NCBI RefSeq assembly: GCF_049075655.1
Contig: NZ_CP157522.1
Span: forward strand, 224,001-288,000
From: Methanothermococcus sp. Ax23
GTDB lineage: Archaea > AGJL01 > Methanococci > Methanococcales > Methanococcaceae
DNA: 64,000 nt
Direction: 5' to 3'
Of this stretch, positions 178 through 63,287 are shown piece by piece (position 1 is the stretch's first letter; each line of letters begins with the position of its first letter). A program made the translations under genes and the position numbers. The notes beneath the pieces are model-generated. The model saw only the letters and a program-made list of their open reading frames with translations. It had not been told where the DNA came from and did no database searches.

Positions 178-510
178 TCACCACTTATCAATTGAATCAT
201 AATCTTTTAGGTATTCAACAACATTTTTTCCATAATTAGTTATTACATAGATTTTCATGCCTGCTTCATCGATACACTCAACAAGACCCATCTCAATTAA
301 TGAATAACTCCCATTGTATCGATTCCCCATTCCTTTTAGACATCCCAATACATTGCTAGGGTCTGAACCCACCCATCTCGAGAGCTCTGAAAGATATACT
401 CCCTGCGGGTGTATTTTATATAGGAAAAATAATATTTTTTTTCTTAATTTGCTTTTGTTTAATGACCTCAATATTGTGGGGTTGATAAATATCATATCTT
501 TTGCCATCAT
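178..510 (-). CDS. earA: Archaellum operon transcriptional activator, EarA family (winged helix)
   Basis: LRSLNKSKLRKKIL...YLSELSR...SDPSNVLGCLKG..NRY...SLIEMGLVE pattern matches EarA (MMP1718-type); GGTG RBS. Confidence 0.85.
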   Translation of the reverse strand: MMAKDMIFINPTILRSLNKSKLRKKILFFLYKIHPQGVYLSELSRWVGSDPSNVLGCLKGMGNRYNGSYSLIEMGLVECIDEAGMKIYVITNYGKNVVEYLKDYDSIDKW

Positions 511-670
511 GCCGTCACACCTGAAGAGTATTATTTCTTAATAACATTATAATTCATATGCATACGATATTATTATGATTATAACATAGGTTAATGTCAT
601 AGGTTATAAACCGATAATTATGATATAATTTATGATAATATAATAAATATGAATAAAATTGGAGATAATA

Positions 671-3205
671 TCAGGCTGCCGAAAATACTGTGGATATTAA
701 ATTCCTTATAATTGAATAAATGCTTTCAAATACACTTTTTTTAGCAGTATTGTTAATATTTTCAGGTATTGTATGATTATTTAACTCAGATGTTGAATGA
801 TTATCTACGCTATTGTTGTTAATTACAGAAGGTGGTGTAATGCTGATATTGTTGTTTTTAACAACACCTCCTTTTTTAACAATATTTTTACTTTTTTCTA
901 AAACCATTGGGTAATATGCCCCATTATCTTTGATAAAATTGGGTATTTCTACATAAAGCTTTAAAGTATAATTTCCTTCATCCAAATCCCTCAATTTTAC
1001 ATTAATATGTTTAATTTCTAGAGGATGTATCATTTCAGAGTGTGCTTCACTTTTAAATACTGATACATTGTCTTTAATTAACTCAATCCAATAATTATAA
1101 TGTATATTGACTGGAAATGCATCGACGGAATCAGAAACTATCTCTGCATGAATCTGGGAATTGTTGTAGGTCAGATTTGTTATGGATAAGGGTGCCACTA
1201 CCTTAATGGGCTTGGTAATAATAGGAGTGGCATTGGAAAGATTATCCCATATTGCGGTTGGAATTGCATAAAACAAAATATGTCCTTCAAACCCCTCATT
1301 AAACTTAATTTTGAAATCAATGGTTTTAAGTCCATTTGGTGGAATATATACTACCCTTTTTGGAGTAGTCGTTTTCACATATCCATCACCCCTCACAACC
1401 TCAATCCAAGTTAAACATTCAATTTTTTCATTTAGTGGATTATTCAATGTAGCTACAAATGTATTATAACATCCCGCCACAGGATAGTGTCTAAACACGG
1501 GATTTTCATTGATAACAGCAATTTTAGGTCTTAGTGTATCATTATAATCTAGTTCAGCTTTTATATTATGTGCATTAAAATGAATAGTTTTAGAAAATTC
1601 TGCCAATGCATCATCTGTTTTTACAAAGAATTGCACATCTCCATTAGCTCCAGTATTAAATGATATTGGAATTGAAATGGTCTTTTCCGCATGAGCTCCT
1701 AATGTAAATGGAACATCTGAAATGTAATTTACAACCCCTTCTTTAAAATCATCTTTAAGAATGAGATTTCCAGAGAGGGTTTTATTATATTTATTTACCA
1801 ATGTTATTTTCATTATGTATGTTCTTCCAACCAATATATCTGCATAGTTGTTAGTTAGCACATAACTCCTATTATCATAAGAATATGTAATATTTTTTAT
1901 CCTTACAACTGGAATTTTCTCAGGATTTATATTAAGATTTTTAGTTTCAATATATGTATAGGTTCCAGCTGAACAGATTACAATTTTAATCTGTTTATTT
2001 CCAGTATAGTTAATATAGCAAGGAATATAAACATCTTTAGTTTCAAAACTGCTCATATTTACATTCTCAGTAGCGGTCCCCATATCATTTTCAATCGATA
2101 TGGTTCCAAATGTTATACCATCGAATCTATTTTTTAATGTTAATTTAACAATCGCCAAATAAGGATCAGTTTTTAAATACGCCCTTGGTATAACATTATC
2201 TTTGTTATAATAACTGTAATGGTCTATCATCTTTTTTAATTCATCGTCTTCAATGTTTGAATCTTTATAAAACTTTCTTAAAATATCCGCAGTAGTTTTA
2301 TTAATATTGGTGACTACCTCAAAATTCGTCAAAGATATTGGATAAAAAAATTTCTTATCAGATTTATTGCGAGAATATATTATATTTAAATTATCGCTCC
2401 CCGTTATTTCAGTATTTGCAGGACCATCCGCGTAATCATGAACCCCCATCACATCGGTATGGACCTGAATTTTTATTGCATCGGCATCCTGGACCACTGG
2501 AGGAATCTTGAAAGATACTTCGGATTCACCATATTTTGGAACATATATTAATTTACTATCATTTTCACCATAATATAGAACTCCCGCATCATTTTTATTC
2601 TTACTTGCATCTTTATTATAATCCTGAGATACTACTGCAATCCATGTTTTAACCATGTAATCTGACTGAGAATACTTATTATTTTTTAAACTAATTTTAA
2701 ACCATGGAGAATTACATACTTCAATATTTGGATTGGATTCATTAACGTATGAATCACTGCATGTTATATTTTCAATATCAATTGGATTGGCAACATATAT
2801 CGTCGTTGATTTAGATGTCAATATATTCCCATTTTCATCTAATACTGATACATATATTTTATGAGGGCCAAATTCCTCAAATTTTAATTTTGCATTTATC
2901 ACCTCCCCCTTGTTTGGGCTCGGCGGCATAGATATTATTGGAGATTGCCATGATATTCCTTCATCTGATTTAATATCTAGAATAATATTATGCTGGTATG
3001 TGTCATGATTAACAACTGCAACACAAATATTAGGGAAGATGCCTACGTCGATATAATATCCACCATATTCCCCATTCAGACCTATAAGAGTATTTGATGT
3101 CCAAATATTAGATACTTCAATATTATTTCCATATAATCCATGAATACCGCCAATTAGAATCCCTATAATTATTATATAATGTATTTTTTTCATGGTGTCC
3201 CTCAA
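671..3205 (-). CDS. Large secreted/surface protein with beta-rich (Ig/CARDB-like) modules, function unknown
   Basis: N-terminal hydrophobic signal, 844 aa with beta-strand pattern, N/S/T-rich linker and amphipathic C-terminus. Confidence 0.7.
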   Translation of the reverse strand: MRDTMKKIHYIIIIGILIGGIHGLYGNNIEVSNIWTSNTLIGLNGEYGGYYIDVGIFPNICVAVVNHDTYQHNIILDIKSDEGISWQSPIISMPPSPNKGEVINAKLKFEEFGPHKIYVSVLDENGNILTSKSTTIYVANPIDIENITCSDSYVNESNPNIEVCNSPWFKISLKNNKYSQSDYMVKTWIAVVSQDYNKDASKNKNDAGVLYYGENDSKLIYVPKYGESEVSFKIPPVVQDADAIKIQVHTDVMGVHDYADGPANTEITGSDNLNIIYSRNKSDKKFFYPISLTNFEVVTNINKTTADILRKFYKDSNIEDDELKKMIDHYSYYNKDNVIPRAYLKTDPYLAIVKLTLKNRFDGITFGTISIENDMGTATENVNMSSFETKDVYIPCYINYTGNKQIKIVICSAGTYTYIETKNLNINPEKIPVVRIKNITYSYDNRSYVLTNNYADILVGRTYIMKITLVNKYNKTLSGNLILKDDFKEGVVNYISDVPFTLGAHAEKTISIPISFNTGANGDVQFFVKTDDALAEFSKTIHFNAHNIKAELDYNDTLRPKIAVINENPVFRHYPVAGCYNTFVATLNNPLNEKIECLTWIEVVRGDGYVKTTTPKRVVYIPPNGLKTIDFKIKFNEGFEGHILFYAIPTAIWDNLSNATPIITKPIKVVAPLSITNLTYNNSQIHAEIVSDSVDAFPVNIHYNYWIELIKDNVSVFKSEAHSEMIHPLEIKHINVKLRDLDEGNYTLKLYVEIPNFIKDNGAYYPMVLEKSKNIVKKGGVVKNNNISITPPSVINNNSVDNHSTSELNNHTIPENINNTAKKSVFESIYSIIRNLISTVFSAA

Positions 3206-3361
3206 TGGATAAATAACTTAATATAAAATAAATTAAAAATAAAGACCCATATATAATATAACTTGTTCAATTTATATTATTTAAATATAATAGTGTATGT
3301 GTATATGTAGGTTATATTATAATCGGAGAATATGGGTAATTAAACCAAAAAAGGTGATTTA

Positions 3362-5539
3362 ATGAAGTTAAAATATCCTAGCTTGATTCTTTGCATGATT
3401 TTTTTACTAATGAATGCAGGATATGCCCTAAATTACAAATGGACATCAACAATACCTGTTGAATTTGTCCCACTTTCAAGTATTGATAATCAAACACAGT
3501 TGGAATATTATTTAAATAAGCATAATATTGTTGTTTTTTATATGGATGAAAAATATAGTATAAAAAGTAACGATTGGATACTATATAAATTTAATATTAC
3601 AAGAGTTAGCCCAGACAAAATTCCAGACTATGGAAATTACACACTCGTAAGTAGTAATGGGGTTGTTGTATTATATCCCGAAAATAGTGTATATCGTGAT
3701 AAAGATGGGGCATTGATATACAATACACCAATGCCAGTAAATGATGTAGAATATAAAATTCAACATGTTCCCCCAGTGAAACAGGAGAAGAATAGTATAA
3801 TCCCAGATTATTATGATTATGTATTAATAAATAACGGAACATTTATCATATATCCTCAAAAATACATAACAAGGGACGACGATGGTGCATTAATTTATAA
3901 TCCTCCATTAAAACAAAATAATAGTAAAGAATACAAGATATCATATGGGAAGCATATTAATGAAAAAGTAATCCCAAATTATTATGATTATGTATTTGTA
4001 AATCAAAATAATGTTTTTGTTATATATCCTCAAAAATACATAACAAAGAACAAAGACGGTGCAATAATATACAATCCGCCATTAGATATTAAAAACGATA
4101 ATATTCCAATATATAATGTTAGCACTAAATTAATAGATGCAGAAAAAGGAGTTTATGAAATCAAACCTAAAAAAATATTGATAACGCACCCAATAAATCC
4201 AGATGACAAAAATATTTTGGATTTCATTGGATATTATGTTTCAGAAAATAACGGGACATTTGCATATATAAACAAAGTTCCACCACACTACAAACATGTT
4301 CTCATTAACGGAATAGTGGTTCAAAATGCCATCCCTGATAAAAACGGAGACTATGCAGTAGATGTTGCAGGGAGAAAGATAAAAGTCGATTTAAGAGATG
4401 ATGATTTAATAAATAAAAAGATAAAAACAGTAAAAGGACTCTCGGAGATTTTAAATATAAATGCAACCTATATATCAACAGGTTCAGAAAATTTAAAGGT
4501 TATTAAAAAAGAAAACCCTGATAAGAATGAATTGGATGCATTGTTAAATGAATATTGGTTTAAAAAATGGTATAATGATGAATATTACCATACATACTAC
4601 AACCCATCAAATATTAAAAACAATTACAATGCCAAAGATTTTGACGTATTGGCCATGAGCTATTATCCGATAATATACACCGATAAAGCACCTGAAACTT
4701 TCCAAAATGACCCAAAAGGTGGATATTACCCAGAGGTTATAAGTTATAAAGGAACTGATGATATTGGATACTGGGAAAAAGGGGTAAAATCCGATAATAA
4801 ATATTATTATTACGATAAAAATGAACCCCATTGGAATGATAACGATAAATATGTAAGTAATTGGTATTATGAAGGAAAATCCGTTTCGCCTGCAAATGAT
4901 TCTGAAATGAACGATAAATACAAATATTTCAACCAATGGTTTGTTAAAAATTATGGCTATGCAGTAAGTGAAGGTGTTGATGGATTGCTTTTAACATCTA
5001 ATGATAAAAACCTGGTTGATGCAGTGTTTGGAAAAGAAAATAATAATATATCGTGGAAACTTGCCATGGATGGCAAACTAAGTTATGTTGTAATCCCTGA
5101 TTACAAAGGAGTTTCAAAGGAAAATAACATAACAATAGTAAAAATCCCTGGATTAACCAATGACCTATATGGCATGCATTATATCAAAGAATACTATATC
5201 CCCCCAAAGGACGAAGAATTTGGAGTTTATGTGGCAGATATTGTGGAATATAACGTCAGCAAAATATATATGTTAAAGAATAACTATACGTGGATTTGTT
5301 CATTTAAAAATTATGCAGATTGGATAAATAATTATATGTATAGCAACATTAAAATAGTAAATAGCACCATAATAATTGCAAAATCTAACAATCCCATAAA
5401 AATAACTATTTACAAAAAAGGAACAAATATTACCTCCCCCGACCTGTTAAAAATACCAATGGAAGAATACGATAAGAATTCAAATAAAATAATATTATAT
5501 TGTTTTTCCAACGGGAGCTCTACAATAAAATTAAGTTAA
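3362..5539 (+). CDS. Secreted hypothetical protein with three internal ~40-aa repeats
   Basis: Signal peptide; three copies of IPxYxxY...YPxxx...DGAxIYNxP; GGTGA RBS. Confidence 0.7.
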   Translation: MKLKYPSLILCMIFLLMNAGYALNYKWTSTIPVEFVPLSSIDNQTQLEYYLNKHNIVVFYMDEKYSIKSNDWILYKFNITRVSPDKIPDYGNYTLVSSNGVVVLYPENSVYRDKDGALIYNTPMPVNDVEYKIQHVPPVKQEKNSIIPDYYDYVLINNGTFIIYPQKYITRDDDGALIYNPPLKQNNSKEYKISYGKHINEKVIPNYYDYVFVNQNNVFVIYPQKYITKNKDGAIIYNPPLDIKNDNIPIYNVSTKLIDAEKGVYEIKPKKILITHPINPDDKNILDFIGYYVSENNGTFAYINKVPPHYKHVLINGIVVQNAIPDKNGDYAVDVAGRKIKVDLRDDDLINKKIKTVKGLSEILNINATYISTGSENLKVIKKENPDKNELDALLNEYWFKKWYNDEYYHTYYNPSNIKNNYNAKDFDVLAMSYYPIIYTDKAPETFQNDPKGGYYPEVISYKGTDDIGYWEKGVKSDNKYYYYDKNEPHWNDNDKYVSNWYYEGKSVSPANDSEMNDKYKYFNQWFVKNYGYAVSEGVDGLLLTSNDKNLVDAVFGKENNNISWKLAMDGKLSYVVIPDYKGVSKENNITIVKIPGLTNDLYGMHYIKEYYIPPKDEEFGVYVADIVEYNVSKIYMLKNNYTWICSFKNYADWINNYMYSNIKIVNSTIIIAKSNNPIKITIYKKGTNITSPDLLKIPMEEYDKNSNKIILYCFSNGSSTIKLS

Positions 5540-6422: not shown

Positions 6423-7250
6423 GTGCTAACAAAAAGAATTATTCCATGCTTGGATATAAAAGAAGGAAGAGTTGTAAAAGGAACAAATTTTGTTGAGTTA
6501 AGGGACGCGGGTGACCCCGTAGAGCTCTCAAAAATATACAATGAACAGGGTGCAGATGAGCTCGTGTTTTTAGACATTACTGCATCATATGAAAAAAGAG
6601 ATATATTAATAGATTTAGTAGAAAGGACAGCAGAGCAGGTATTTATCCCCTTAACAGTTGGTGGAGGTATAAAAACTGTCGATGATTTTAGAAGAATACT
6701 CAGGGCAGGGGCTGATAAAATATCTATAAATACTGCTGCGGTTAAAAATCCTGCATTGATTAGAGAAGCTAGTGAAATATTCGGTTCTCAGTGTGTAGTT
6801 GTAGCTATTGACGTAAAAAGAAACTACGTTGATGAAGATAAACTTGAATCCAAAGATTTGGAAGATAAAAATATCGTAAAAATTGACAAAAATAAATACT
6901 GCTGGTTTGAAGTCTATATCTATGGAGGTAGGAAAGGAACAGGCATTGATGCTATTGAATGGGGTAAGGAAGTGGAGGAGCTCGGTGCAGGGGAGATACT
7001 TTTAACCAGTATGGATGCAGATGGAACAAAAGAAGGTTATGATATTGAACTAACAAAATCAATGTCAATGAATGTAAAACTTCCAGTAATAGCAAGTGGT
7101 GGTTGCGGAGCTCTTGAACATATCTATGATGCATTCGAGTATGGGAAAGCGGATGCAGCACTGATGGCTAGCATACTGCATTATAGGGAATATACTGTTC
7201 AGGAGATAAAGGAATATTTATTAAAAAAGAGTATTCCTGTTAGATTATAA
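6423..7250 (+). CDS. hisF: Imidazole glycerol phosphate synthase cyclase subunit
   Basis: [40 protein letters not shown]. Confidence 0.97.
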
Positions 7251-7454: not shown

Positions 7455-8165
7455 ATGGCAAAAAGTAGTTCAAAATCATCATCTGATGTGGAAAATGCAA
7501 AATTTATGGTAGCAAAAGAAGCGGCAAATCTTATAAAAGATGGAATGATTGTAGGCCTTGGTTCAGGCTCTACTGCAAATTTGTTCATAAGAGAGCTCGG
7601 AAGAAGAGTGGTAGAAGAGGAATTAAGTATATTTGGAATACCAACTTCATTTGAATCTAGAATGCTTGCTATTCAATATGGAATTCCTTTGGTTTCACTT
7701 GATGAATATGGTGAAATAGATATTGCTGTTGATGGTGCTGATGAAGTTGATAAGGAATCACTCTGTCTTATAAAAGGGGGCGGAGGATGCCATACAAGAG
7801 AAAAAATAATAGATTACTGTGCAAAGGAATTTGTGGTTATGGTGGATGAAAATAAGATTGTAGATTTATTGGGCGACAAAACACCAGTTCCATTAGAGGT
7901 TTTACCTTTTGCATATTCCACCGTTTTAAATGAATTATTAAAAAGAAATGCCGCACCATCAATAAGAATGGCTGATAGAAAAATGGGCCCAGTAATTACA
8001 GATAATGGAAATATGATTATAGATGTATTTATTGACCTAAAAAATCCCGAAGAAGTTGAAAGAGAATTAAACAATATTCCAGGAGTTATAGAAAATGGAA
8101 TATTTACAAAAGTAGATAAGGTTCTTGTTGGAAGCCCAAAAAAAGTTAAAATATTGAGTAAATAA
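7455..8165 (+). CDS. rpiA: Ribose-5-phosphate isomerase A
   Basis: GLGSGST, DGADE, IKGGGG, PVITDNGN, GVIENGIF. Confidence 0.97.
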   Translation: MAKSSSKSSSDVENAKFMVAKEAANLIKDGMIVGLGSGSTANLFIRELGRRVVEEELSIFGIPTSFESRMLAIQYGIPLVSLDEYGEIDIAVDGADEVDKESLCLIKGGGGCHTREKIIDYCAKEFVVMVDENKIVDLLGDKTPVPLEVLPFAYSTVLNELLKRNAAPSIRMADRKMGPVITDNGNMIIDVFIDLKNPEEVERELNNIPGVIENGIFTKVDKVLVGSPKKVKILSK

Positions 8166-8688: not shown

Positions 8689-8895
8689 ATGGAAAGTCTT
8701 TTGAGTAAAAGCCCGGGCACATATACCGTTGTAAAAATAGCAAGCCCATGCAAAAAATTCCATGAGCTCGGCATAATTCCTGGTTCTAAAATAACAGTGA
8801 TTTCTTCAAATAAAAGGGGACCTATACTTGTAAGAATAGGAAATTGCAAAATAGCCATAGGAAGGGGCATGGCAAATTCTATACTTGTGGAATAA
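8689..8895 (+). CDS. feoA: Ferrous iron transport protein A
   Basis: ELGIIPGSKITV...GPILVRIG..KIAIGRG; upstream of feoB. Confidence 0.92.
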   Translation: MESLLSKSPGTYTVVKIASPCKKFHELGIIPGSKITVISSNKRGPILVRIGNCKIAIGRGMANSILVE

Positions 8896-20493: not shown

Positions 20494-21249
20494 TTATTTT
20501 AAATATTTATTTAAATACCCTCTTGGAGTAATCATTTTATTATCTACTATTTTTGTGTTTGAGTTTCCAATTATTAAGGTGGTGTTCATATCGATATAAT
20601 TCATATAATCATCTAAATTGCTTGTTAAATCATTCAAAGTGGTTATTTTATATTCTTCTGAATCTCTTCCAGCATTTTTAACGATTCCAATAACATAATT
20701 TATTTTTCGTTTTTCTGCATAATTTTTTATAACATCCAGAGTCTTTAAAAATGGCTCTTTTCTTGATTTACTTAATGGGTTATATATTGCAACAACAAAA
20801 TCCCCTTCCAATGCACATTTAACTCTGTTTAATATAACTTCCAATGGTGTGAGCAAATCACTTAAACTAATTACGCAAAAATCATGATTTAGCGGAGCTC
20901 CTAATATTGCCGAGCATATGCTTGCAGATGTTAAACCACTTATTACTTTTATGGGGACATCAATATTGTTTTTTTCTCGGAGCTCATAGGCAAGGGACGC
21001 CATGCCATAGATTGTAGCATCCCCACTTGATACAAGTGCGACATCTTTATCTTTCGCTTCATTTAGAGCATAACTTGTTCTATCAATTTCTTTTTTCATT
21101 CCAGATGTGTAAATTGGCTTGTTAAATCGTTTTATAAATTTTTCATAACCTTTATAGCAGACAATTAAATCGACATTGTTTAAAATAGCCTCTGCCTCTT
21201 CTGTAAAAAAATCTTTATTGCCCGGTCCTATTCCAACGATATAAAGCAT
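20494..21249 (-). CDS. cbiH: Precorrin-3B C17-methyltransferase
   Basis: YIVGIGPG, VSSGDATIYGMA, LGAPLNHDF..ISLSDLLTP, MITPRGY. Confidence 0.93.
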   Translation of the reverse strand: MLYIVGIGPGNKDFFTEEAEAILNNVDLIVCYKGYEKFIKRFNKPIYTSGMKKEIDRTSYALNEAKDKDVALVSSGDATIYGMASLAYELREKNNIDVPIKVISGLTSASICSAILGAPLNHDFCVISLSDLLTPLEVILNRVKCALEGDFVVAIYNPLSKSRKEPFLKTLDVIKNYAEKRKINYVIGIVKNAGRDSEEYKITTLNDLTSNLDDYMNYIDMNTTLIIGNSNTKIVDNKMITPRGYLNKYLK

Positions 21250-21317
21250 AATATCACATAATTTAGATTCCATAAGAAGAAAATATATTCAATAAAATAA
21301 TCTTAATAAATGGTAGC

Positions 21318-21400: not shown

Positions 21401-21563
21401 AATTAATATTATAAAAATAGATATTTAAAGGTATCGAAAAATCCGAATAATGAAATCAGGGCGAAGCAGAGAGCAATAAATTCCGAAGATTTTTGTTTTA
21501 ATCGGAGCTCCGAAGAAGTATCATATAAATAATTTTACAATGTTCTTCACTTGGTTCTAAATG

Positions 21564-53865: not shown

Positions 53866-56589
53866 TTATTGAATTATAGCAATTCCATCAACTAATCCAT
53901 CGATATCCACAGTTTCTACAATTTCCCCTTTGCTAAATAATGCCCTTTTAACACTCTTAATATGTTCCTTTGTCAATAAACCAAACTCTGTTTCAAGTCC
54001 CTCATTTAGTATTTTTTCTATGGTTTCTTCATCTGCATCTTTTATGTAATCCATAACTTTTTTGGAGTCTTTTTTAAACTCTGGACCTATTTTTGATTTG
54101 TTTGGAACAACTTCAACAATTTTCTGCTCCAATTCTGGTTTTCCATTTATTACATTCAATTCTTTTATATTCAGAGCTCCCTTTATATCATTAGCTACCT
54201 TCAATATTCCTTCGTATTCATTTTTATCTAAAACATAGATTTCAACATTTTTGAGTTCGGTGTTTAAAGGCATACCTTTGTTGGATTTGTATCTTCTTAT
54301 GGAAGCTACGGTGTTTTTGGCAAGTTCTCCGATGTATTCATTCTCCTCACTTATCATGTTTTCATCAATTTTACACCATGATGTGTGAAGATTATCTACT
54401 TTATATATGTCTCCAACAATATCTGCGAAATGCGGTGCAAATGGAGCCATAAGTTTTAGTGTATTTGTAATTACAGTGTATAATGTATATTGTGCGTTGA
54501 ATTTGCTTATTTTTGCCTTTTCAGTATCTTCTTTATTATACAATCTGTATTTTACCATTTCAATGTAGTTGTCGCAGAACTCATGCCATACGAATTTTTG
54601 AATATCTACTATGGTGTTGAATTTGTAGTTGTTTAGGTCTTCACTTACTTTTTTGATTAATTTGTTTAACTTACTTAATATCCACAAATCCACAGGGTTA
54701 TTTAGATTTACACAGTTGCATGGGTTAGGAACTTCAACTTCTTCGCCACCTACACTTAATTTCACTTTTGAATCATTTATAATATTTTTAATAGTATCAA
54801 TTGTTTCATCATCTAAATTCATCTTTGCAAATCTTGAAGCATTCCAGAACTTTCTTAAAAACCTATATCCATAATCTACTTCCTTCCATGCGAATGGAAC
54901 ATCATTTCCAAGGGTGCTGTTAGCCGCCCACAACCTTAAAGCATCTGAACCGTAGTTTTTTGTTATCTCAAATGGCTCTACAATGTTTCCTCTACTCTTA
55001 CTCATTTTATGTCCGTCTTCACCAAATACCATACCATTTATAACTATTTCATCCCATGGCTTTTTATCCGTTAATGCTATGGATTTTATAATTGTGTAGA
55101 ATGCCCATGTTCTTATAATATCATGCCCCTGTGGTCTGAGCTGAACTGGATAGTGGGATTTGAAAAACTCCTCATCATCCATCCATCCTGCTATCACCAT
55201 AGGGGTAATGGAAGAGTCCATCCAGGTATCCAATACATCTGTTTCAGGAATTAAATTTTTATTTCCGCATTTGCAGGCGTATGGGCATTCTTTTGTTGGG
55301 TCAATTGGAAGGTCTTCCTCCTTAGCTACGATTATTTCCCCACAATCTGGACAATACCATACTGGAATAGGTGTGGCAAATAATCTCTGCCTACTTATGC
55401 ACCAATCCCAATCCATGTCTTCAATCCACTGCAATAATCTTGTTTTCATGTGTTCAGGCATCCATTTAATTTCATTTGTAGCCTGTTCTACTTTTGGCAA
55501 TAGTTTTTTAACATTTACAAACCACTGGTCACCAACAATAATTTCAATAGGTGTTTTACATCTCCAACATACTCCTACATTCTGCTCCAATGGTTCCTGT
55601 TTTATTAAATATCCTTCGTTTTTAAGGTCTTCAATTATTTGCTTTCTTGCATCCTCTGTTTTCATCCCTGCATACTTTCCACAGATTTCAGAGAGCTCAC
55701 CCTTTTCATTAATTGCCTTCTTAATTTCAAGACCATGTCTATTTACCCAGACAACATCCGTCTTATCTCCGAAGGTACATACCATTACGACCCCGGTTCC
55801 AAATTCCTTCTCAACATCGCTATCAGGATATACCTTAACTTCCTGATTAAATAAAGGAACTTTTACAGTTTTTCCAACAACATTCTTATATCTCTCATCT
55901 TCTGGATGCACCACAATACCAACACATGCCGCAAGGAGCTCAGGTCTTGATGTTGCTATTTCCAAGTATTTGTTTTCATCTTCACTGTATGGGAATTTTA
56001 TATAATTCAGTTTGGAAGTTCTTTCTTTATAATCCACTTCTGCAAAGGCAATTGCTGTTTGACATCTTGGACACCAATTTACAGGGTGCTTTCCCCTATA
56101 TATTAAGCCGTTTTCATACATTCTTACAAATGCAGTTTGGGATTTTTTAACATAGTCTGGGTTCATGGTGATGTATTCTTTATCCCAGTCAATAGAAATA
56201 CCAAGAGATTTCACTTGTTCTCTCATTTTTTCTATATTTTCCTCGGTGAGCTCTATACATAGTTTTCTAAATTCATGTCTATCAATATCTGATTTTGTAA
56301 TGCCGTGGATTTCTTCAACCTTAACTTCTGTTGGGAGCCCGTGGCAGTCCCATCCCTGTGGAAACAGCACATCATAGTTGTTCATTCTTTTGAATCTTGC
56401 TATAATATCCATGTATGTCCAATTTAAAGCATGCCCCAAATGCATCCTTCCTGTTGGATATGGTGGTGGCGTATCTATAATATATGGCGGTCTTTTTTCA
56501 TCGTTTTTGAATTTATAAATTTTGCTTTCTTCCCATTTCTTTTGGATTTCTTTTTCCAGTTCAATGGAGTATTCCTTAGGCATTTCCAT
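53866..56589 (-). CDS. valS: Valine--tRNA ligase
   Basis: DTPPPY, HLGH, WCISRQ, DTWMDS, KMSKS. Confidence 0.97.
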
Positions 56590-56810
56590 GTTTTCCCTCT
56601 TATGATTATGATAGGTTTAGATAATATCTAATAAAAATTTGAATAGAATTCAATTTTTATACCACACAGTTTTTACTTTATACACTCTACATTAAAAATA
56701 TAATAAAAATATAAATTATGTTTTAAAAAGATTATGTTTTATTATATCTCACATTATAAAAATTATGTTATAAATTTTCAACATCGGGTAGTCTCAGATA
56801 GAGCTCAACC

Positions 56811-57915
56811 GAGGTTGTCGAAAAATATTAAAGCATCAATAATATATAATACATATTATGAAAGGGAATTCAAAAAAGAAAAAAGAAAAGAAAAAGACCA
56901 ATACTAAGAGGAAAGAAAAATATTGGAAAGCTTACGATATTAGATATAAAAACTACGACCTAAGAACTACATATACATTAATTTTATCCATTACAAACAT
57001 GCTGAATCGTCCTTCTACTGAAGGACGAAAGGTTGGTAGGACACCAGTCCTACCACATAATGAATATGTGGTAGTTCTAATATTAAAATATATCTACAAA
57101 CTAAGTTTAAGAGATTTGGAAACGCTCTCAAATATTTTACACAACAGACATATCGACCATTCTACATACGGTAAAGCATTCAAGCGAATAGATAACTGGT
57201 GGTTATCTACCTTACTTACTTTTACATATGTAATTATAGACAATCTACTAAACCAGCCCTCCAACAAACTATATATGGCAGATTCCACAGGAGTTTCTAT
57301 AAATAGATTATATGATGAATGTATTCACCGTGGGAAACGGACTAAACGGTTAGTGCATGATAAATTGCATATATTGGCATGTCGCTTACGAAGTAAGCGA
57401 GTAATGAAATTGAAATCTATGATTTCAATTTCATCTGATTACTATCCAGAACAAGGCTATATCCCAATAGTTTCTGCTCGTTGGGGTGGTGCTTATAGTT
57501 CCGATAGTGCCAACCTATTAGAAATGGTTAAACAGATAGATTTTTTAGATAATGAATATCTATTGGCTGATGGAGGATATGATTGTTGTGAATTGTTTGA
57601 GTACTTATTACAACACAATATCACTCCAATAGTTAAAACAAAAGAATTCAAATGGAAGTATCACATTAGAAAAGTTAGAAAAACCATTAAAAGCATGTTT
57701 AATAAGGATTGGTATCGCCTTCGAGGGATAGTAGAATCCATATTTGGAGGGCTGGAGACTAAAAACAGATTAAAATTAGATGATAAGTTAGTAGATAGTA
57801 GATGTAAAAGCACTATCGCAGTAGCGATAGTGCATAACATATTAACACTAATGAGGATATTAGTATTAACATATGATACCAAATAAATTTACTAATTCAA
57901 TTATTCGACAACCTC
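56811..57915 (+). mobile_element. IS5-family-like insertion sequence, 1105 bp
   Basis: TIRs GAGGTTGTCGAA / TTCGACAACCTC; 9-bp TSD AGCTCAACC at 56802-56810 and 57916-57924. Confidence 0.92.
56858..57886 (+). CDS. DDE transposase (IS5/IS4 superfamily)
   Basis: ADSTG, KLH, LADGGYD, YRLRGIVESIFG. Confidence 0.9.
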   Translation: MKGNSKKKKEKKKTNTKRKEKYWKAYDIRYKNYDLRTTYTLILSITNMLNRPSTEGRKVGRTPVLPHNEYVVVLILKYIYKLSLRDLETLSNILHNRHIDHSTYGKAFKRIDNWWLSTLLTFTYVIIDNLLNQPSNKLYMADSTGVSINRLYDECIHRGKRTKRLVHDKLHILACRLRSKRVMKLKSMISISSDYYPEQGYIPIVSARWGGAYSSDSANLLEMVKQIDFLDNEYLLADGGYDCCELFEYLLQHNITPIVKTKEFKWKYHIRKVRKTIKSMFNKDWYRLRGIVESIFGGLETKNRLKLDDKLVDSRCKSTIAVAIVHNILTLMRILVLTYDTK

Positions 57916-57921
57916 AGCTCA

Positions 57922-57939
57922 ACCGAAAAGTATATATAT
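57922..57939 (+). promoter_or_regulatory. BRE-TATA promoter of tRNA-Leu
   Basis: ACCGAAAAG-TATATATA ~35 bp upstream of the tRNA. Confidence 0.75.
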
Positions 57940-57972
57940 GAGTTCTGAGTATGTAATGATGCAAGTAGTTGA

Positions 57973-58060
57973 GCAGGGGTTGCCAAGCCTGGCCAACGGC
58001 GCTGGACTTAAGATCCAGTCCCATAGGGGTTCGGGGGTTCAAATCCCCTCCCCTGCACCA
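57973..58060 (+). tRNA. tRNA-Leu(TAA), CCA encoded; probable integration site
   Basis: GCAGGGG/CCCCTGC stem, anticodon loop CT-TAA-GA, long variable arm. Confidence 0.96.
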
Positions 58061-58391: not shown

Positions 58392-61300
58392 TTACTCGCT
58401 TATGAGGAACCCTCTCCGAGGTTCCAGCAGTTCTCCAATATTTTTCAGTTTTTCAATAGTTTTTTCATATACTTCCTCTGGATACTTCAACACTTCTATA
58501 ATGTATTCCCAGAGTTCTGTTTCATTAATTCCATTTCTTGCTTTTTCAATAATCTCTTCCTCTATTGTCTTATTTTCTTCCTTGAATATTTTTATGAATC
58601 TTTCCAATAATTCATCCCTATCTATTATCTTTATTGTAGCATTCTCTCGTTTTTTCTTTAATTCTTTTGAAATGTAATTGTATATTGCAGAGAGTATATT
58701 CTTTATTTCTTCAAATTTTAATTTTATTCCACATTCTTTTTGGATTTCCATTATAATTTCTTTAATGGTTATTGTTTTATTTTTTAATCCATTTCCAAGT
58801 CCATATATTTTTTCCAACACTTTTGTCTCAAACATTTTTAAATATCCTTTTTCCATCTTACTGAGGTTCTCTTTTGCACATTTAACTATATTGTATGCTA
58901 TTTTTATTCTTTTAGTGATTGCACCCCACTTTGCTGGACTGAGCTCTGCTATCTTCATGGCAATATCTTTTTGAGTTCTGGCATCATCTCCAAGGATAAC
59001 TTCAGTAATCTTTGGGAACTCTTCATGCAGTTTGATATATTCAACGACTCTTCTTGCCATTTTTATATGCTTCACAATTAGGTATTTTTCATACTCACTG
59101 AACCTATCGTAGTTATTGTATTTTAACGCATTATTTACATCCTTAAACCTTTCATCAATAATATCTACTAACTTATTTACTTCTATCTTGTTTATCTCAG
59201 ATAGTTCCTTTCTTATTTCCAATACTTCTCCAATTTCTTCATCCATTATTTTTTCTATGGTTTTTATCTCCCACCCATGCCCTGTTGTCTCATCCAAATA
59301 TTTTTTCAATAATTCAGAGTTTGAAACAATTATTCTTTCTAATTTTCGATTTGTAAGATATGCTATTTTAGCCTCATCAACTTTATACCCTCCATCTTCT
59401 CTTTTCAAAATCTGCAACTGTTCTATTAGTTTTGTAGGTTTGAGTTCTTTTTCAATATCCAATATTTCTTTATTGTATTCTGAAACTAAATACTCTTTAA
59501 ATAATGAAAAGTCATCATTTGCCATACTTAGCATCTTTTCATATCTCAACATCTGTGATGCCTTCCCCTGTTCTGTATATATTATACAAGTGTCTCCCCC
59601 ATTTCTAACTCTTGCAAGGAACTGCCTGATAATTGTGGCTGATGAAGTTTTAAGGACTGCAACAACATCTACTTTATCCTTTATATTTAGTTGAATTGTT
59701 TCGTTTTCCCCTTCCCCATTTTTAATATTTATCCCTTCTGCAATTATTCTTGTTGCTAAAATTAAACCGTCTGGAACTCTTTCACTGTTTATTATCATCT
59801 GTGCCGCTTTATCTGTTCCAACAGTCTCCTTTGTAATTTTATAAATTTCTGAATTGAAGTTGTATAATTTAAGAATTTCTTCAATAGTATCTATATCCTT
59901 TTTTGAATCTACCAATACTATACCTTTTTTACTACCTTTGTTAAATTTCATTGTGATATATTTACAAAAATCTATAATGTTGTGGAGTCTTCCTTCTGAT
60001 TCAATTATGAAAGTATTTTTAAAGTATTCTTTTTTATCTTTAAATACTGCTTTGACAACCCTTTTGTTTTGTAGGTTTATGAGCTCAGGTGTTGCAGTTA
60101 ATAATATTGAAGCATATACTTTATTCAAATACTGTTCAATATTATTTATTTCCTTTTTCCTGAACTCTTTTTGTAAGATTAAATTGTGAGCCTCATCTAC
60201 TATCAATATAATGTCTTTATCTTCTTTTAGTTGTATTTCTTCTTTTCTCTCACCTATATCGATTACATCATACTTTATATCATACATTATCCTATCCAAT
60301 TGGTTATATGTTCCTATTACTAACCTTATTTCTTTTGCATTGTGAATTCTTGTAGTGCTACCTTCATAATATGCCGCCACTTTTGTTCCTTGGGATGCTA
60401 ATGTATTGTATGTCTGCATCACTTGTGATTTATAAGGGAATAGTAAGACAGTAATTTTCCCATTATTTTCTTCGTAGATTTTTCCTATGTTATTTGTTAT
60501 TGTGTATGTTTTCCCCCTTCCAGTTTCTGCCTGTAATATCACTGGTTTATTTTCTTTTGCAGAGTTGTCTATTGCTGTTTGTAGAACCTCGTATTTCAAA
60601 TACTTTTCACATTCAACTATTACTGCATTTTTATTCTTATCCAGTAATTCTTTTAAATATTCCTCCGCCTCAACATAATCATCCACTTTTGATGAAATTC
60701 CCTTCTTTTCAATAAATTCTAATATTTTATCTTTATATGCTCCCCATAGATATGCAATAACATTTGTTCTCAAATTATTGTTATGCCAATCTACTGCTAT
60801 GGCATTATATCCTTTATTTGGATATATGGTGCAATCTGGGTTATTTCCATCATTATAGTATATTGAATAGATGCTGATGTATTTACCATTTGATTTATAT
60901 CCCACTCTTAAATAGTCAAATAATTCTATAATCCACTTACTATCTTTGTATATTTCAGTTAATTTTGCCTGTATGAATTTCGTAAATTTGTATTCTTTTT
61001 TTGTTAATTCTTTAAAATCTTTAATTTTTATGTTTGATTTTTTGAGTTTATTGATTAGTTCAAATGATTCCGTTGTTTCACTTGCTTCTTTTACCATTTC
61101 TTTATATTCTTCATTATTTATTCCGAATTTGTAGAAAAATACTTCTGGAGCTATTGGTGCTAGATTTTTTCTTACATATAATATTTTACAGTCTCTCCCT
61201 CCCTCATATTTTTCTTTTCTGTTTTTTGTTCCAGGAAGTCTATCTACTCTTGCAATATCGTACATTGCAGTGTCTGCATCATGTCCAATTTGTTCTGCAA

Positions 61301-61952
61301 TTTTGGAAAGTATTGGGAGTTCTAACCTTGATATTGGTCTATCAATGTAATAGATGAACCTCAAACCCCCTCCGGTGAATGCAATAATGTGTGGTGTTGT
61401 GTAATCATCAGGGAGCTCTGAAAGTATTTTGTTTATTTTGTCATTTATCTCATCCATGGTAGGTTCTTTTTCTTTCCACTCCTCAACATCAAAATCAATA
61501 GGTATATAAATCCATGCTGTGGCTGATTTTGAACTCCCATTTTCCGTCTGTCTTGGTGCTATCCCTATTGATACAGTTGTTAATCTTGCTCTTTTACCTA
61601 TCTTTTTTAAAATTTCATTTTCTTTTTCGTAAATTCTGTTTGAAATTGATTCAGCAATGTTTTTTATGTCATCTGGATTAATCTCTGGGATTTCTATATA
61701 TTCAGAATATGCCCAGGAGTTTCTGTTATTTGGTTTTTGGTATTTCTTTTCCAATTCAACCAAATACCTAACTTCAAAATAGTTCATGTGTTTTATTGAT
61801 TTTTTTATATCCTTTTTGAGTTCTGGAATCGTTCCATCAACTACACTCCATACTATTTTATTTCTAAAATTGTAAATTGATGCCAGTAAAATACTTATAT
61901 GTTTAGTTATTTGTTTATTATTTGGCAAATTATATGAAGTGTATTTTTCCAT
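58392..61952 (-). CDS. Replication protein: AEP primase-polymerase domain fused to an SF2 helicase and a C-terminal winged helix
   Basis: IDFD, FTGGGLRF, YDIARVDRLPGTKN; AETGRGKT, VDEAH, TATP, AEGINI, QFLARVR. Confidence 0.8.
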   Translation of the reverse strand: MEKYTSYNLPNNKQITKHISILLASIYNFRNKIVWSVVDGTIPELKKDIKKSIKHMNYFEVRYLVELEKKYQKPNNRNSWAYSEYIEIPEINPDDIKNIAESISNRIYEKENEILKKIGKRARLTTVSIGIAPRQTENGSSKSATAWIYIPIDFDVEEWKEKEPTMDEINDKINKILSELPDDYTTPHIIAFTGGGLRFIYYIDRPISRLELPILSKIAEQIGHDADTAMYDIARVDRLPGTKNRKEKYEGGRDCKILYVRKNLAPIAPEVFFYKFGINNEEYKEMVKEASETTESFELINKLKKSNIKIKDFKELTKKEYKFTKFIQAKLTEIYKDSKWIIELFDYLRVGYKSNGKYISIYSIYYNDGNNPDCTIYPNKGYNAIAVDWHNNNLRTNVIAYLWGAYKDKILEFIEKKGISSKVDDYVEAEEYLKELLDKNKNAVIVECEKYLKYEVLQTAIDNSAKENKPVILQAETGRGKTYTITNNIGKIYEENNGKITVLLFPYKSQVMQTYNTLASQGTKVAAYYEGSTTRIHNAKEIRLVIGTYNQLDRIMYDIKYDVIDIGERKEEIQLKEDKDIILIVDEAHNLILQKEFRKKEINNIEQYLNKVYASILLTATPELINLQNKRVVKAVFKDKKEYFKNTFIIESEGRLHNIIDFCKYITMKFNKGSKKGIVLVDSKKDIDTIEEILKLYNFNSEIYKITKETVGTDKAAQMIINSERVPDGLILATRIIAEGINIKNGEGENETIQLNIKDKVDVVAVLKTSSATIIRQFLARVRNGGDTCIIYTEQGKASQMLRYEKMLSMANDDFSLFKEYLVSEYNKEILDIEKELKPTKLIEQLQILKREDGGYKVDEAKIAYLTNRKLERIIVSNSELLKKYLDETTGHGWEIKTIEKIMDEEIGEVLEIRKELSEINKIEVNKLVDIIDERFKDVNNALKYNNYDRFSEYEKYLIVKHIKMARRVVEYIKLHEEFPKITEVILGDDARTQKDIAMKIAELSPAKWGAITKRIKIAYNIVKCAKENLSKMEKGYLKMFETKVLEKIYGLGNGLKNKTITIKEIIMEIQKECGIKLKFEEIKNILSAIYNYISKELKKKRENATIKIIDRDELLERFIKIFKEENKTIEEEIIEKARNGINETELWEYIIEVLKYPEEVYEKTIEKLKNIGELLEPRRGFLISE

Positions 61953-61964
61953 AATCTCCCCATT

Positions 61965-62927
61965 TTATAAATTTCTTCTAATTGTGTTTAGTAAAATATC
62001 TGTTCGCTCTTTACTATGTGCGTAGAATAATGTTGTTTCTAATGAACTATGTCCCAAGTATTCTTTTACAATTTCAATTGGAACACCATTGTTCAGTAGT
62101 TCAACTGCCCTACCATGTCGTAGGGAATGAACAACTATTCTTTTATTTTTTGGAATCTCTCCCTCTTTCTTTAATTCATTCACGGCTCTTCTGAACATCT
62201 CACTAACCCAACCTCTTCTTACTTTCCCTCCTTTATCGTTCTGGAATATTGGGTCTTTGTCCTCTGTTTTTATGTTATATTTCACATATTCTCTTAATGC
62301 CATTAGTGTGTCCTTAGAACACACTACAAATCTTTCTTCACTAGATTTTGTATTTTTAATTCTGAACCTCCCCTCTTCAAAGTCGCAGTCTTCATAAGTT
62401 AAATTTATAATTTCTGAAATTCTGCATCCTGTGTCCCACAACATTCTGATAATTAAGGCATCTCTCATATTTGTTCTTCCCCTTCTTTGTAGAATCTTTT
62501 TTAATATTTTGTTCAATGTTTTCGAATTTACTGCATCATAGTGCTTTACTTCAAACTTTGTATATCTTCTTCTTTCTCTGCATTCCATTTCAAATTCCTT
62601 GAAATTTTCCAATCTCATAAGTCTATAAAACACTTTTAATAGTTTGAAATACTGACCTACTGAATTTCCCAATTTTCTTTCGTTTTCCAAATATTTGAAG
62701 AATTTACTGAATTCCTGTTTATTTAATTGGTCTGGTTCTTTGTTTATCCTCTCATAGCAGTATGAGAGAAAAACTCTGAGCCTTGATATATCACTTTTTA
62801 TTGTTGTCTCTTTTATTCTGTCAAATTCCCTTTCTTCTCTGAACTTCTCTATCCATTTGTCTTGGTTTGATAGTTCTACCTTTTTTTTATCAGGATTGAT
62901 AAGAATTAGATTTTCAATATCCTTCAT
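61965..62927 (-). CDS. Tyrosine recombinase/integrase
   Basis: TGCRISE, NTKS, HSLRHG, LGH and catalytic Tyr in TTLFY. Confidence 0.93.
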   Translation of the reverse strand: MKDIENLILINPDKKKVELSNQDKWIEKFREEREFDRIKETTIKSDISRLRVFLSYCYERINKEPDQLNKQEFSKFFKYLENERKLGNSVGQYFKLLKVFYRLMRLENFKEFEMECRERRRYTKFEVKHYDAVNSKTLNKILKKILQRRGRTNMRDALIIRMLWDTGCRISEIINLTYEDCDFEEGRFRIKNTKSSEERFVVCSKDTLMALREYVKYNIKTEDKDPIFQNDKGGKVRRGWVSEMFRRAVNELKKEGEIPKNKRIVVHSLRHGRAVELLNNGVPIEIVKEYLGHSSLETTLFYAHSKERTDILLNTIRRNL

Positions 62928-63204
62928 GGATTCCCTCTTCTTCTTGGTAGATAATACAATTGATTACAAAGTTTGCTCCTTCCCCAAATTTGTTTAATAT
63001 TTCAATTTCTTTATCTGATAGTGTTAGTAATTTTTTGTTAGTTAATTTTCTCTTTTTTATTTCTGCTATCACTCTTGGGTCTATGCCTTTGTAATTTTCT
63101 GCTTTATGTAGATAGTATCTGAGCTCTCTTGCACCTATGTTTTTGTAGATGTTAAAATATTTTTTTGAATACTTTTTCCCTTTATCCTTGCTCATGCACT
63201 TCAT
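62914..63204 (-). CDS. DUF2540 / MJ0366-like knotted ribbon-helix-helix protein
   Basis: F.IYKNI..RELRYYLHK.EN...LTLS..E.EI...G..ANF..NC matches my recollection of MJ0366; overlaps the integrase start. Confidence 0.75.
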   Translation of the reverse strand: MKCMSKDKGKKYSKKYFNIYKNIGARELRYYLHKAENYKGIDPRVIAEIKKRKLTNKKLLTLSDKEIEILNKFGEGANFVINCIIYQEEEGIHEGY

Positions 63205-63287
63205 AGTTTCCCTTCATACTATTTTTGTAGAGCTCTACAAGTGGTAGTAATACTCACATTGTAGAGCTCCTATTGTTGCAGTATTAC

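Follow-up and report, generated by a model that had tools for sequence, protein, structure and literature searches.

A highly iterated GAGCTC palindrome in the genomes of some Methanococcales

The GAGCTC array in the window and across the genome

The hexanucleotide palindrome GAGCTC recurs throughout the 64-kb stretch of DNA analysed here (the window, G000:C1:224001-288000), which comes from a thermophilic methanogen with a Methanothermococcus-type genome (Methanococcales). This genome (G000) comprises a chromosome, C1 (1,662,948 bp), and a second contig, C2 (7,732 bp), with a G+C content of 31.9%; the other genome labels used below (G003, G010, G012, G037 and so on) denote its Methanococcales relatives. 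A string search of the window returned exactly 80 GAGCTC sites, dispersed over positions 382-63269. The initial annotation had counted about 80, and each coordinate it gave was found. In 100 dinucleotide-preserving shuffles the expected number was 3.78 (sd 1.78, maximum 9) and none reached 80. Every 8-kb bin of the window held 8-14 sites, with 30 located in plus-strand genes and 39 in minus-strand genes.

Sites were observed in all frames, on both strands and in non-coding DNA, as the initial annotation had described. Thirty-nine were in the GAG-CTC frame (frame 0; positions 382, 7593, 9576, 10962, 12237, 14718, 15321, 17587, 17875, 19517, 20980, 24033, 25172, 28655, 28997, 29516, 32933, 33296, 35450, 36991, 38276, 42028, 42890, 43488, 43623, 44546, 44798, 46571, 47489, 47714, 50504, 53273, 55693, 55936, 56248, 58941, 60081, 61413 and 63121), 20 in the xGA-GCT-Cxx frame (frame 1; 1693, 6273, 11566, 13491, 17236, 17832, 18525, 20247, 20895, 22794, 26189, 29412, 34420, 35422, 41382, 47749, 50939, 51236, 52447 and 54174) and 10 in the xxG-AGC-TCx frame (frame 2; 5515, 6301, 11006, 17168, 19510, 30073, 30145, 38988, 47769 and 51355). 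The remaining 11 (6522, 6558, 6978, 7108, 8764, 21505, 23424, 27212, 56801, 63230 and 63264) were not in ATG-initiated open reading frames (ORFs) of at least 90 amino acids, and four of these 11 sites (6522-7108) fall within a GTG-start ORF at 6423-7250. Two sites 7 bp apart (19510-19522; 19510 in frame 2, 19517 in frame 0) lie in a beta-propeller ORF (18515-20431, plus strand). Three sites within 61 bp (47714-47774) occupy one frame each (47714, frame 0; 47749, frame 1; 47769, frame 2) of a hydrogenase large-subunit-like ORF (47120-48694, minus strand), and an initial syntenic alignment showed 47769 to be one of the few sites that each of the four enriched congeners carries.

Inter-ORF sites included 8764-8769, flanked by ORFs 7455-8165 and 9237-11207, and 21505-21510, flanked by ORFs 20494-21273 and 21992-22852, whilst the site at 56801-56806 separates the valyl-tRNA synthetase (ValRS) gene from a DDE transposase ORF. 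The ValRS gene (53866-56589, minus strand), our marker for the tree and for comparing site positions, carries four sites (54174, 55693, 55936 and 56248). Its orthologues carry three in G012, three in G003, none in G010 and one in G037; none occurred in 21 of 25 other genomes. The DDE transposase ORF (56,858-57,886, plus strand) adjoins a tRNA gene (57,973-58,057, plus strand), followed by a 1,186-aa helicase-like ORF (58,392-61,952, minus strand). This region is probably the 'integrated element' of the initial annotation, and GAGCTC occurs there at about its usual density (58941, 60081, 61413, 63121, 63230 and 63264). Elsewhere in the window, the ORFs at 671-3,205 (minus strand, 844 aa) and 3,362-5,539 (plus strand, 725 aa) had no Pfam match at E ≤ 1e-5.

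The whole genome (1.67 Mb) contained 2,089 GAGCTC, 2,085 on C1 and four in the 7.7 kb of the plasmid C2, equating to 1.25 per kb or approximately one per 0.8 kb. Amongst all 4,096 hexamers GAGCTC ranked first for its observed/expected ratio (O/E), which was 16.7 relative to base composition and 19.7, 13.1 and 4.9 under Markov models of order 1, 2 and 3, respectively. At maximal order (4) the ratio dropped to 1.6; this model conditions on the pentamers GAGCT and AGCTC, 81% of which lie within sites (4,178 of 5,138 GAGCT continue with C). The excess persisted under this correction (2,089 vs 1,305.6 ± 17.8 expected, z = 44), which the initial annotation had proposed might remove it. AGCT alone was at expectation (O/E 1.03), yet 41% of its copies sat in GAGCTC, and AGCTT and AGCTA had O/E values of 0.59 and 0.47.

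Codon usage was addressed using 1,525 ORF-genes (ATG start, ≥90 aa, greedy calling) covering 83.5% of the chromosome. By frame, 1,069 sites were GAG-CTC, 606 xGA-GCT-Cxx and 219 xxG-AGC-TCx, with 191 outside these ORFs. Within-gene synonymous codon shuffles (30 replicates), which keep both protein and codon usage, gave 187.5 ± 10.8 sites (maximum 207) compared to the 1,895 observed in ORFs, and shuffling codon order left 112.0 ± 9.3. A roughly 10-fold excess thus remained in the second comparison that the initial annotation had suggested could abolish it. Glu-Leu was encoded by GAG-CTC in 1,070 of 3,843 cases (codon-usage expectation 0.9%). Among Glu codons 25% are GAG and among Leu codons 6.6% are CTC, and 1,070 of the 2,742 uses of CTC came directly after GAG. 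Between xGA and Cxx, Ala was encoded by GCT in 606/611 cases (elsewhere 22-30%); Gly-Ala-Pro was GGA-GCT-Cnn in 124/125 cases and Gly-Ala-Leu likewise in 175/269.

As the 'intergenic' class held some alternative-start ORFs, we masked every open frame of at least 60 codons in all six frames, leaving 110,661 bp (22% G+C). This strictly non-coding DNA contained 64 sites vs 1.5 expected (order 1), and GAGCTC was again the top hexamer. A 40-codon limit left 30 sites vs 0.5 expected, an overall non-coding excess of 41-65-fold, and the strictly non-coding DNA of G037 contained 87 sites vs 2.9 expected. In G000, each of the four types of intergenic space carried 0.57-0.80 sites per kb, and sites kept no particular distance from start codons. 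The iterated palindrome is therefore a property of the DNA, not of the genes.

The idea that codon, dicodon or oligonucleotide usage generates the sites as a side effect, or that they are copied from some longer repeat, could draw on the small maximal-order ratio and on the dicodon GAG-CTC making up half of the sites. It is refuted by the 10-fold excess after synonymous shuffling, the 41-65-fold excess where no frame is open, the minor status of GAG and CTC save beside each other, the z-score of 44 at maximal order, flanks that are nearly information-free (see below) and the lack of the word in 35/40 related genomes of similar composition. We assign it a negligible probability, and the earlier suggestion that codon usage alone is insufficient is upheld by the shuffles, the all-frame excess and the non-coding DNA.

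The palindrome overrides codon preference and also changes amino acids. Tripeptides of the form [GR]-A-[LPHQR] had O/E values of 1.84 in G000, 1.51 in G037 and 1.10 in G005, a congener with few sites, and the reversed-tripeptide controls were at 1.09 (G000) and 1.06 (G037). In G000, GAP was at 2.24 vs 0.92 for PAG and EL at 1.21 vs 0.88 for LE, whereas G005 had EL at 0.88 vs LE at 1.06. Across 413 three-way orthologues, the background fraction of residues unique to G000 was 0.057; at site codons that G037 does not share, it rose to 0.111 in frame 1 and 0.146 in frame 2.

Recognition unit, placement and distribution

To describe the strength of the effect, the odds of a site were modelled as codon-usage odds multiplied by one factor, fitted by maximum likelihood. 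This factor was 35.5 in G000 (41, 48 and 16 for frames 0, 1 and 2) and 20.9 in G037 (23, 20.5 and 14.6), such that a single factor of roughly 20-40 fits all three reading frames. Flanking G...C, giving GGAGCTCC, raised it to 968 at Gly-Ala-Pro and 523 at Gly-Ala-His. Flank bias comprised G at -1 (38%), little T at -2 (15-16%) and T at -5 (45-48%), mirrored on the other side and alike in coding and intergenic sites. Palindromic 8-mers numbered 649 vs 585 predicted from independent flanks, and 222 of 276 copies in the CGGAGC excess were CGGAGCTC. Flank and word analysis in G000 found no longer repeat behind GAGCTC. All six positions of the palindrome were driven, most strongly the A/T positions 2 and 5. 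What is recognised is therefore the hexamer, accompanied by weak, symmetric flanking preferences over ~16 bp, a pattern suggestive of a dimeric protein.

Along the chromosome, sites per 10 kb had a mean of 12.54 and a variance of 12.98 (range 5-23) in G000, and a mean of 8.89 and a variance of 9.28 in G037. Gaps were exponential with a mean of 797 bp (16 exceeded 4 kb vs 13.8 expected), except that gaps shorter than 20 bp were scarcer (24 vs 52) and those of 20-50 bp more frequent (117 vs 75) than expected. Placement is thus Poisson, without saturation or even spacing, at the scales tested. The largest site-free gaps (11.1 kb at C1:113,848-124,946 and others) were low-GC islands, mostly without counterparts in G037, and included a type III restriction locus. 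Conversion of Glu-Leu to GAG-CTC reached 317/1,036 and 567/1,846 in two core gene classes (together 884/2,882), compared to 104/455 in weakly matching genes and 82/506 in genes without a G037 match. Core genes being about twice as saturated as accessory genes indicates that accumulation takes time. The earlier suggestion of long residence or amelioration is therefore partly supported, by this two-fold difference and by the even coverage of the window, and only to that extent.

We surveyed 40 Methanococcales genomes, and a phylum-wide scan returned the same 38 genomes. Runs X1-X3 contained near-identical strains (0.83-0.95 of sampled words). Five were enriched, namely G000 (2,089 copies), G012 (2,070), G010 (1,645) and G003 (1,321) from genus g1 and G037 (1,515) from genus g4, whilst the remaining 35 held 4-229 copies each. 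Equal abundance in all related genomes, which the initial annotation had considered fatal to its proposal, was thus not observed. In G037 GAGCTC was again the top hexamer (O/E 10.8). Identical ValRS entries tie G010 to Methanococcus aeolicus, G012 to Methanothermococcus okinawensis and G037 to Methanothermococcus. Other g1 congeners had purged the word (G005, 14 copies; G008, 9; G002, 16; G007, 4). In the first 680 kb of G005, O/E was 0.044 for GAGCTC, 0.047 for AAGCTT, 0.19 for TAGCTA and 0.23 for CAGCTG, AGCT being purged there in all its palindromic contexts. GAG-CTC encoded 1 of 1,220 Glu-Leu in G005 where codon usage predicts 7.5%. The same region (G005:C1:1-680,000) was rich, about 10-fold, in GAGGAG/CTCCTC-type words, and a 257-aa PF01555 methyltransferase at G005:C1:47,542-48,153 is a candidate AGCT-specific system.

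A single-protein ValRS tree of 30 genomes (FastTree, without support values) grouped the four enriched g1 genomes into a clade whose sister group comprised the remaining seven g1 genomes of the tree, and placed G037 beside the non-enriched genus g3. Taken together, we are highly confident that a lineage-specific, actively maintained, DNA-level iterated palindrome is real.

Other words had their own profiles. G000 strongly avoided hexamers containing GATC, GTAC, CTAG, GCGC or ACGT, as well as all four GTNNAC and CTNNAG palindromes (O/E 0.02-0.15); CTCGAG had eight copies, and only a few DNA methyltransferases were detectable. The palindrome profile of G037 differed, with GATC words at 0.3-0.4 and CTGCAG enriched 3.6-fold. 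A dispersed repeat of ~45 nt, the hairpin AACGATTAAAATCGTT followed by GGCTTTCTCGGCGGTTTATCGTAA, was found at ~23,830-23,885 of the window (G000:C1:247,854) and in at least 20 other places, none of them inside an ORF. Owing to this repeat, CGGCGG ranks second among the over-represented hexamers of non-coding DNA; the word, which stems from the repeat and from rRNA and tRNA genes, was set aside as separate from GAGCTC. The repeat may be a terminus of an IS200/IS605-type or miniature element, and a TnpB-like fragment (g806) is present in G000.

Turnover of sites and the search for an effector

Sites turned over between relatives, and every branch showed both gains and losses. Comparison of G000 and G037 (1,157 reciprocal best hits, median identity 76%) revealed that 384/1,571 aligned G000 sites were also sites in G037. 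At conserved Glu-Leu, the probability of a site in one genome was 0.323 given a site in the other and 0.132 otherwise. The corresponding correlation (0.19) was no larger than that of ordinary dicodons (0.07-0.22), and the two site sets therefore look like independent draws. Only 1/621 G000 sites was also a site in G005.

A four-way alignment of 34 genes from G000, G012, G003 and G010 gave 10,355 ungapped codon columns, with fourfold-site differences from G000 of 0.264 (G012), 0.361 (G003) and 0.451 (G010). Amongst 83 site columns, six were common to all four genomes and 31 were singletons (17 in G010). Retention of G000 sites was 35/49 (0.71) in G012, 17/49 (0.35) in G010 and 24/49 in G003, where GAG and CTC codons that are not part of a site predict 0.15, 0.08 and 0.35, respectively. 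Conservation above control words, a feature of cyanobacterial highly iterated palindromes (HIPs), was thus found among close relatives, and at the distance of G037 sites were no stickier than other dicodons. The G003 lineage, which has the lowest count among these close relatives, showed 17 site losses vs one gain in the 34 genes, and the force seems weaker there.

Single-lineage losses (n = 11) comprised nine one-step changes, eight of them GC-to-AT transitions. For terminal gains in G000, G012 and G003 (n = 14), the hexamer of the nearest relative was one, two or three letters away in five, five and four cases, so that 9/14 differed from every relative by 2-3 letters inside the hexamer. Divergence flanking the gains was not raised (0.175 vs 0.155 ± 0.021). 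Depletion of one-off neighbours, for which the initial annotation had proposed a test, was not marked overall (GAGTTC/GAACTC, O/E 0.88) but did appear in synonymous context. Amongst non-site Glu-Leu dicodons in G000 and G037, the transition neighbours GAACTC (0.64 and 0.44 of expectation) and GAGCTT (0.46 and 0.55) were drained, whereas transversion neighbours were not (0.83-2.23). Draining of transitions only is not predicted by a reversible mutation-selection equilibrium. In our reading of these small samples, sequence keeps flowing in one direction, into the site, whilst loss is moderately slowed. A 'mutation shelter', in which bound sites mutate less, was rejected because loss is reduced merely ~2.5-5-fold on a rough estimate, which falls short of the 35-fold excess. 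The flanking divergence led us to reject the import of sites in recombination tracts as well.

Selection could account for much of this. Each GAGCTC, at best GGAGCTCC, would be a site for an abundant lineage-specific protein and bring a small additive benefit, through nucleoid organisation or protection at high temperature, as a Chi-like self-DNA mark for a nuclease or defence system, or as a recombination signal. Such selection would fit retention above that of neutral GC-rich codon pairs (0.71 vs 0.15; 0.35 vs 0.08), the graded dependence on flanks, which resembles a binding-energy landscape, the different odds factors of the lineages (35 vs 21), expected if population size or benefit differs, and the four sites on the C2 plasmid. 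Better-than-control retention was also the ground on which Xu et al. 2018 argued for selection on the cyanobacterial HIP1. However, counts are Poisson and gaps exponential, showing neither diminishing returns nor spacing control, unlike the periodicity reported for HIP1, and individual sites are not conserved (6/83 columns in all four genomes; 384/1,571 with G037). Persistence of sites in G037 does not exceed that of ordinary dicodons (lambda 0.19 vs 0.07-0.22), drained transition neighbours are not predicted by equilibrium selection on the full site alone, close relatives lack sites or purge them, and no candidate protein was found. Additive weak selection accounts for the majority of these facts and its probability comes close to that of the conversion bias proposed below; we consider it the main rival, though rather unlikely in itself.

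The initial annotation had proposed a methyltransferase-coupled repair bias of the Dcm/Vsr or Mig type. The proposal is not supported, since the parts it would need (a C5 methyltransferase in G000, Vsr, MutS, NucS, a shared methyltransferase) were not found in the genomes searched. The C5 methyltransferase family PF00145 had no matches in G000, G003 or G005 and only sub-threshold ones in G010 and G012; of the five other genomes searched, only G037 exceeded the cut-off. No PF01555, PF00145, PF02384 or PF07669 methyltransferase was common to the five enriched genomes, with G012 having no PF01555 or PF00145 DNA methyltransferase and G010 none of PF02384 or PF07669; the PF02086 scan covered G000 only. 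Profile searches found Vsr in 0/5 genomes (positive controls matched in three), MutS in 0/23 genomes of the family and NucS in 0/5 enriched genomes. The RE_SacI family (PF09566) matched 0/40 genomes, with control genomes also unmatched. In G000, PF01555 matched the type II pair (L001), two tRNA methyltransferases and a protein resembling type III Mod; L003 and L004 were rejected as DNA methyltransferases, being tRNA methyltransferases.

The methylation that such a model expects is likewise missing from the text of the published single-molecule real-time (SMRT) methylome of M. aeolicus PL15/Hp, the species to which G010 is tied by its identical ValRS. It lists N4-methylcytosine (m4C) at CTAG, N6-methyladenine (m6A) at the MaeIII site, GCACY and CGAG, and inferred 5-methylcytosine (m5C) at ACGT, and neither GAGCTC nor AGCT is named in that text, though its supplementary tables might contain other motifs. 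With ~1,600 sites, m6A or m4C at GAGCTC would hardly be missed by motif calling. That paper also states that m5C is not directly detected by SMRT.

A methyltransferase-linked ratchet after Elhai's HIP model or of the Dcm/Vsr type, in which a GAGCTC or AGCT methyltransferase plus repair converts near-sites, would agree with several observations. Both drained neighbours are C-to-T products of the site, GC-to-AT transitions make up 8/11 single-lineage losses, alternate cyanobacterial HIPs, including 6-mers with O/E ~15, each accompany a cognate methyltransferase (Elhai 2015), and a review table lists AGCT-specific m4C methyltransferases as common in archaea. It conflicts with the lack of a C5 methyltransferase in G000, G003 and G005 and of any shared family, the wrong distribution of the L001 pair (below), the counts for Vsr (0/5), MutS (0/23) and NucS (0/5 enriched genomes), and the methylome text, which is without GAGCTC or AGCT. 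Furthermore, the bias is strongest at A/T positions 2 and 5 (606/611), a bias that repair of T:G to C:G is unable to create. We regard the ratchet as very improbable, and in its m6A or m4C form as close to refuted.

Individual candidate effectors were also rejected. The L001 pair (G000:C1:1,437,541-1,439,159; L001, L005, L017) comprises a 300-aa SPPY methyltransferase overlapped by a convergent ORF of 245 aa, which has a PD...E-x-K-like motif but matches no Pfam family. Copies 74-77% identical occur in seven genus g2 (Methanocaldococcus-type) genomes, and G003 has stop codons in its copy; this type II restriction-modification pair looks laterally shared between families. It fails as a cause, since G012, G010 and G037 lack it whilst seven non-enriched g2 genomes carry it. 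The AlkD-like g881 was found only in G000 and G037, with weak matches in three g3 genomes. The Cdc6-like AAA/winged helix-turn-helix (wHTH) protein g583 was present in all five enriched genomes and not found in G005 or G004 (E ≤ 1e-10), and was rejected on account of 70-90% identical homologues labelled M. maripaludis, M. voltae, Methanotorris, Methanocaldococcus and a Methanothermococcus single-cell genome. Judged by these homologues, g583 would be a conserved family gene lost in two genomes. It lies in G000:C1:650,061-656,207 with an MCM gene, two small wHTH-like ORFs and an extremely AT-rich spacer of 660 bp, plausibly a replication origin region.

Screening by synteny for genes common to G000 and G037 that G005 lacks at the syntenic positions within its first 680 kb gave eight genes, none convincing; 185 non-syntenic shared genes were uninformative because gene order is scrambled; and outliers of high G000-G037 identity were methanogenesis genes and a syntenic recombinase-like pair. 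A 101-aa MNT-antitoxin-like nucleotidyltransferase was 99% identical between G000:C1:190,804-191,109 and G037:C1:177,055-177,357 (genome median 75%) and adjoins type I restriction genes in both; it was likely transferred laterally in recent times.

Transfer could also drive the word if GAGCTC were an uptake, packaging or recombination-entry signal and site-bearing DNA replaced site-poor alleles. The initial annotation had itself named a DNA-binding or uptake signal as an alternative, which may apply. A density of ~1 per kb, the use of all frames and altered proteins are reminiscent of uptake sequences, and core genes are twice as saturated as accessory genes. Yet a 6-bp palindrome nearly without flanking information is unlike known uptake signals, placement is Poisson without fragment-level saturation, and gained sites were not in diverged (imported) tracts, a comparison of low power. 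ComEC was found in 0/40 genomes and DprA in 1/40, that genome not being enriched; archaeal uptake routes beyond these families are possible. For HIP1 itself, better natural transformation is reported in a 2024 preprint, and according to a 2026 paper it correlates with type IV secretion. We consider transfer-linked drive improbable for GAGCTC.

How the palindrome may be written and what it means

Our preferred reading, which we hold tentatively and at somewhat less than an even chance, is that a site-autonomous conversion or fixation bias, rather than selection, writes GAGCTC. A GAGCTC allele would meet a near-GAGCTC allele through replication error or in a heteroduplex between the many genome copies, and the outcome would favour the full palindrome. 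The bias would be exerted by a postulated lineage-specific protein reading the palindrome as a dimer with a footprint of ~16 bp. High ploidy and frequent gene conversion are reported for the Methanococcales and would amplify such a bias. The uniform odds factor, Poisson placement, drained neighbours, multi-letter gains and amino-acid changes best fit conversion or fixation bias. Judging from the profile searches, this process runs without a recognisable GAGCTC methyltransferase, Vsr, MutS or NucS.

Several points weigh against this conversion bias. Weak additive selection gives the same odds factor, Poisson placement and retention; the drained neighbours could equally mean a non-equilibrium system; and turnover was assessed on few data (83 columns, 14 gains and 11 losses confined to single lineages) with rough neutral yardsticks. 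No effector emerged among the candidates tested, the L001 pair, g881 and g583 each failing. m5C at GAGCTC would be compatible with the SMRT data, and sites were counted in G010 whilst the methylome came from another strain (PL15/Hp). Finally, as the tree rests on one protein without support values, one origin or two may both be possible.

Known systems differ in instructive ways. DNA uptake sequences (DUS) of Neisseria and uptake signal sequences (USS) of the Pasteurellaceae, including Haemophilus, also occur about once per kb in all frames, affect proteins and are thought to spread by molecular drive. GAGCTC shares with them its density in coding DNA, its use of all frames and its measurable protein effects; they are 9-12 nt, non-palindromic and tied to ComEC-type competence, whereas GAGCTC is a 6-bp palindrome with nearly independent flanks in genomes where ComEC is 0/40. 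Dcm/Vsr very-short-patch repair (CCWGG, Escherichia coli) raises the count of a palindromic word and lowers its T-containing neighbour. The T-containing transition neighbours of GAGCTC are similarly drained, but the effect is far larger, all six positions are driven, and G000 had no C5 methyltransferase and the five genomes searched no Vsr. Restriction-site avoidance concerns the same class of word (GAGCTC is the SacI site, its core the AluI site) with the opposite sign in the enriched genomes. Chi is likewise over-represented genome-wide, as a self-marking word under weak selection; it is asymmetric and replication-oriented, whereas GAGCTC is symmetric, and we know of no RecBCD in archaea.

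The best reading by analogy is that GAGCTC is the archaeal counterpart of cyanobacterial HIP1 (GCGATCGC) and its alternates. The initial annotation's comparison with HIP1 held for a short palindrome in all frames and in intergenic DNA beyond what codon usage explains. According to Elhai 2015 and Xu et al. 2018, HIP1 occurs about once per kb, is not driven by codons, is kept above control words and has a mechanism that stayed unexplained for decades. Taking a genome-wide O/E of about 15 or more and a density of about 0.3-3 per kb as HIP-type features of a short palindrome, GAGCTC in G000 shows both, together with occurrence in all frames and non-coding DNA; like HIP1 and the alternates, it reaches O/E ≥15 and ~1 per kb and is present in some lineages whilst missing in close relatives. 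Periodic or non-random spacing was not found from 10-kb counts and gap lengths, the long-range method of Xu et al. being outside this scope. Unlike HIP1, it is a 6-mer in an AT-rich archaeal host, Poisson-distributed at the scales tested where HIP1 reportedly shows periodicity, and subject to fast site turnover. Unlike the HIP alternates, no cognate methyltransferase was found for GAGCTC, nor is one evident in the text of the methylome of an enriched species, and Elhai's HIP1 ratchet would lack its MutS/MutL here, MutS being found in 0/23 genomes of the family. We found no earlier report of iterated GAGCTC in the full-text literature, with subscription journals and supplementary files lying outside that reach.

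In practical terms, the palindrome dictates codon choice at Glu-Leu, Gly/Arg-Ala-X and Ser-Ser and supplies approximately one SacI site per 0.8 kb, both relevant to annotation and engineering, and an influence on oligonucleotide-based binning or transfer detection is to be expected. Hyper-abundant palindromes such as HIP1 have gone unexplained for about thirty years, current ideas invoking cognate methyltransferases, mismatch repair or transformation. Here, one genus offers a natural experiment, with genomes holding 1,300-2,100 copies, chance numbers or a purged word, and these on, off and purging states within a genus should make the cause findable through gene-content comparison and simple bench tests in cultivable species such as those labelled M. 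okinawensis and M. aeolicus. It is conceivable, though on present evidence doubtful, that an unprecedented sequence-specific system for repair, gene conversion or recognition of self-DNA, which needs neither methylation nor MutS/MutL, NucS or Vsr, rewrites the palindrome genome-wide and with enough force to alter codon choice and proteins. If true, this would provide a tractable archaeal counterpart to the HIP1 problem.

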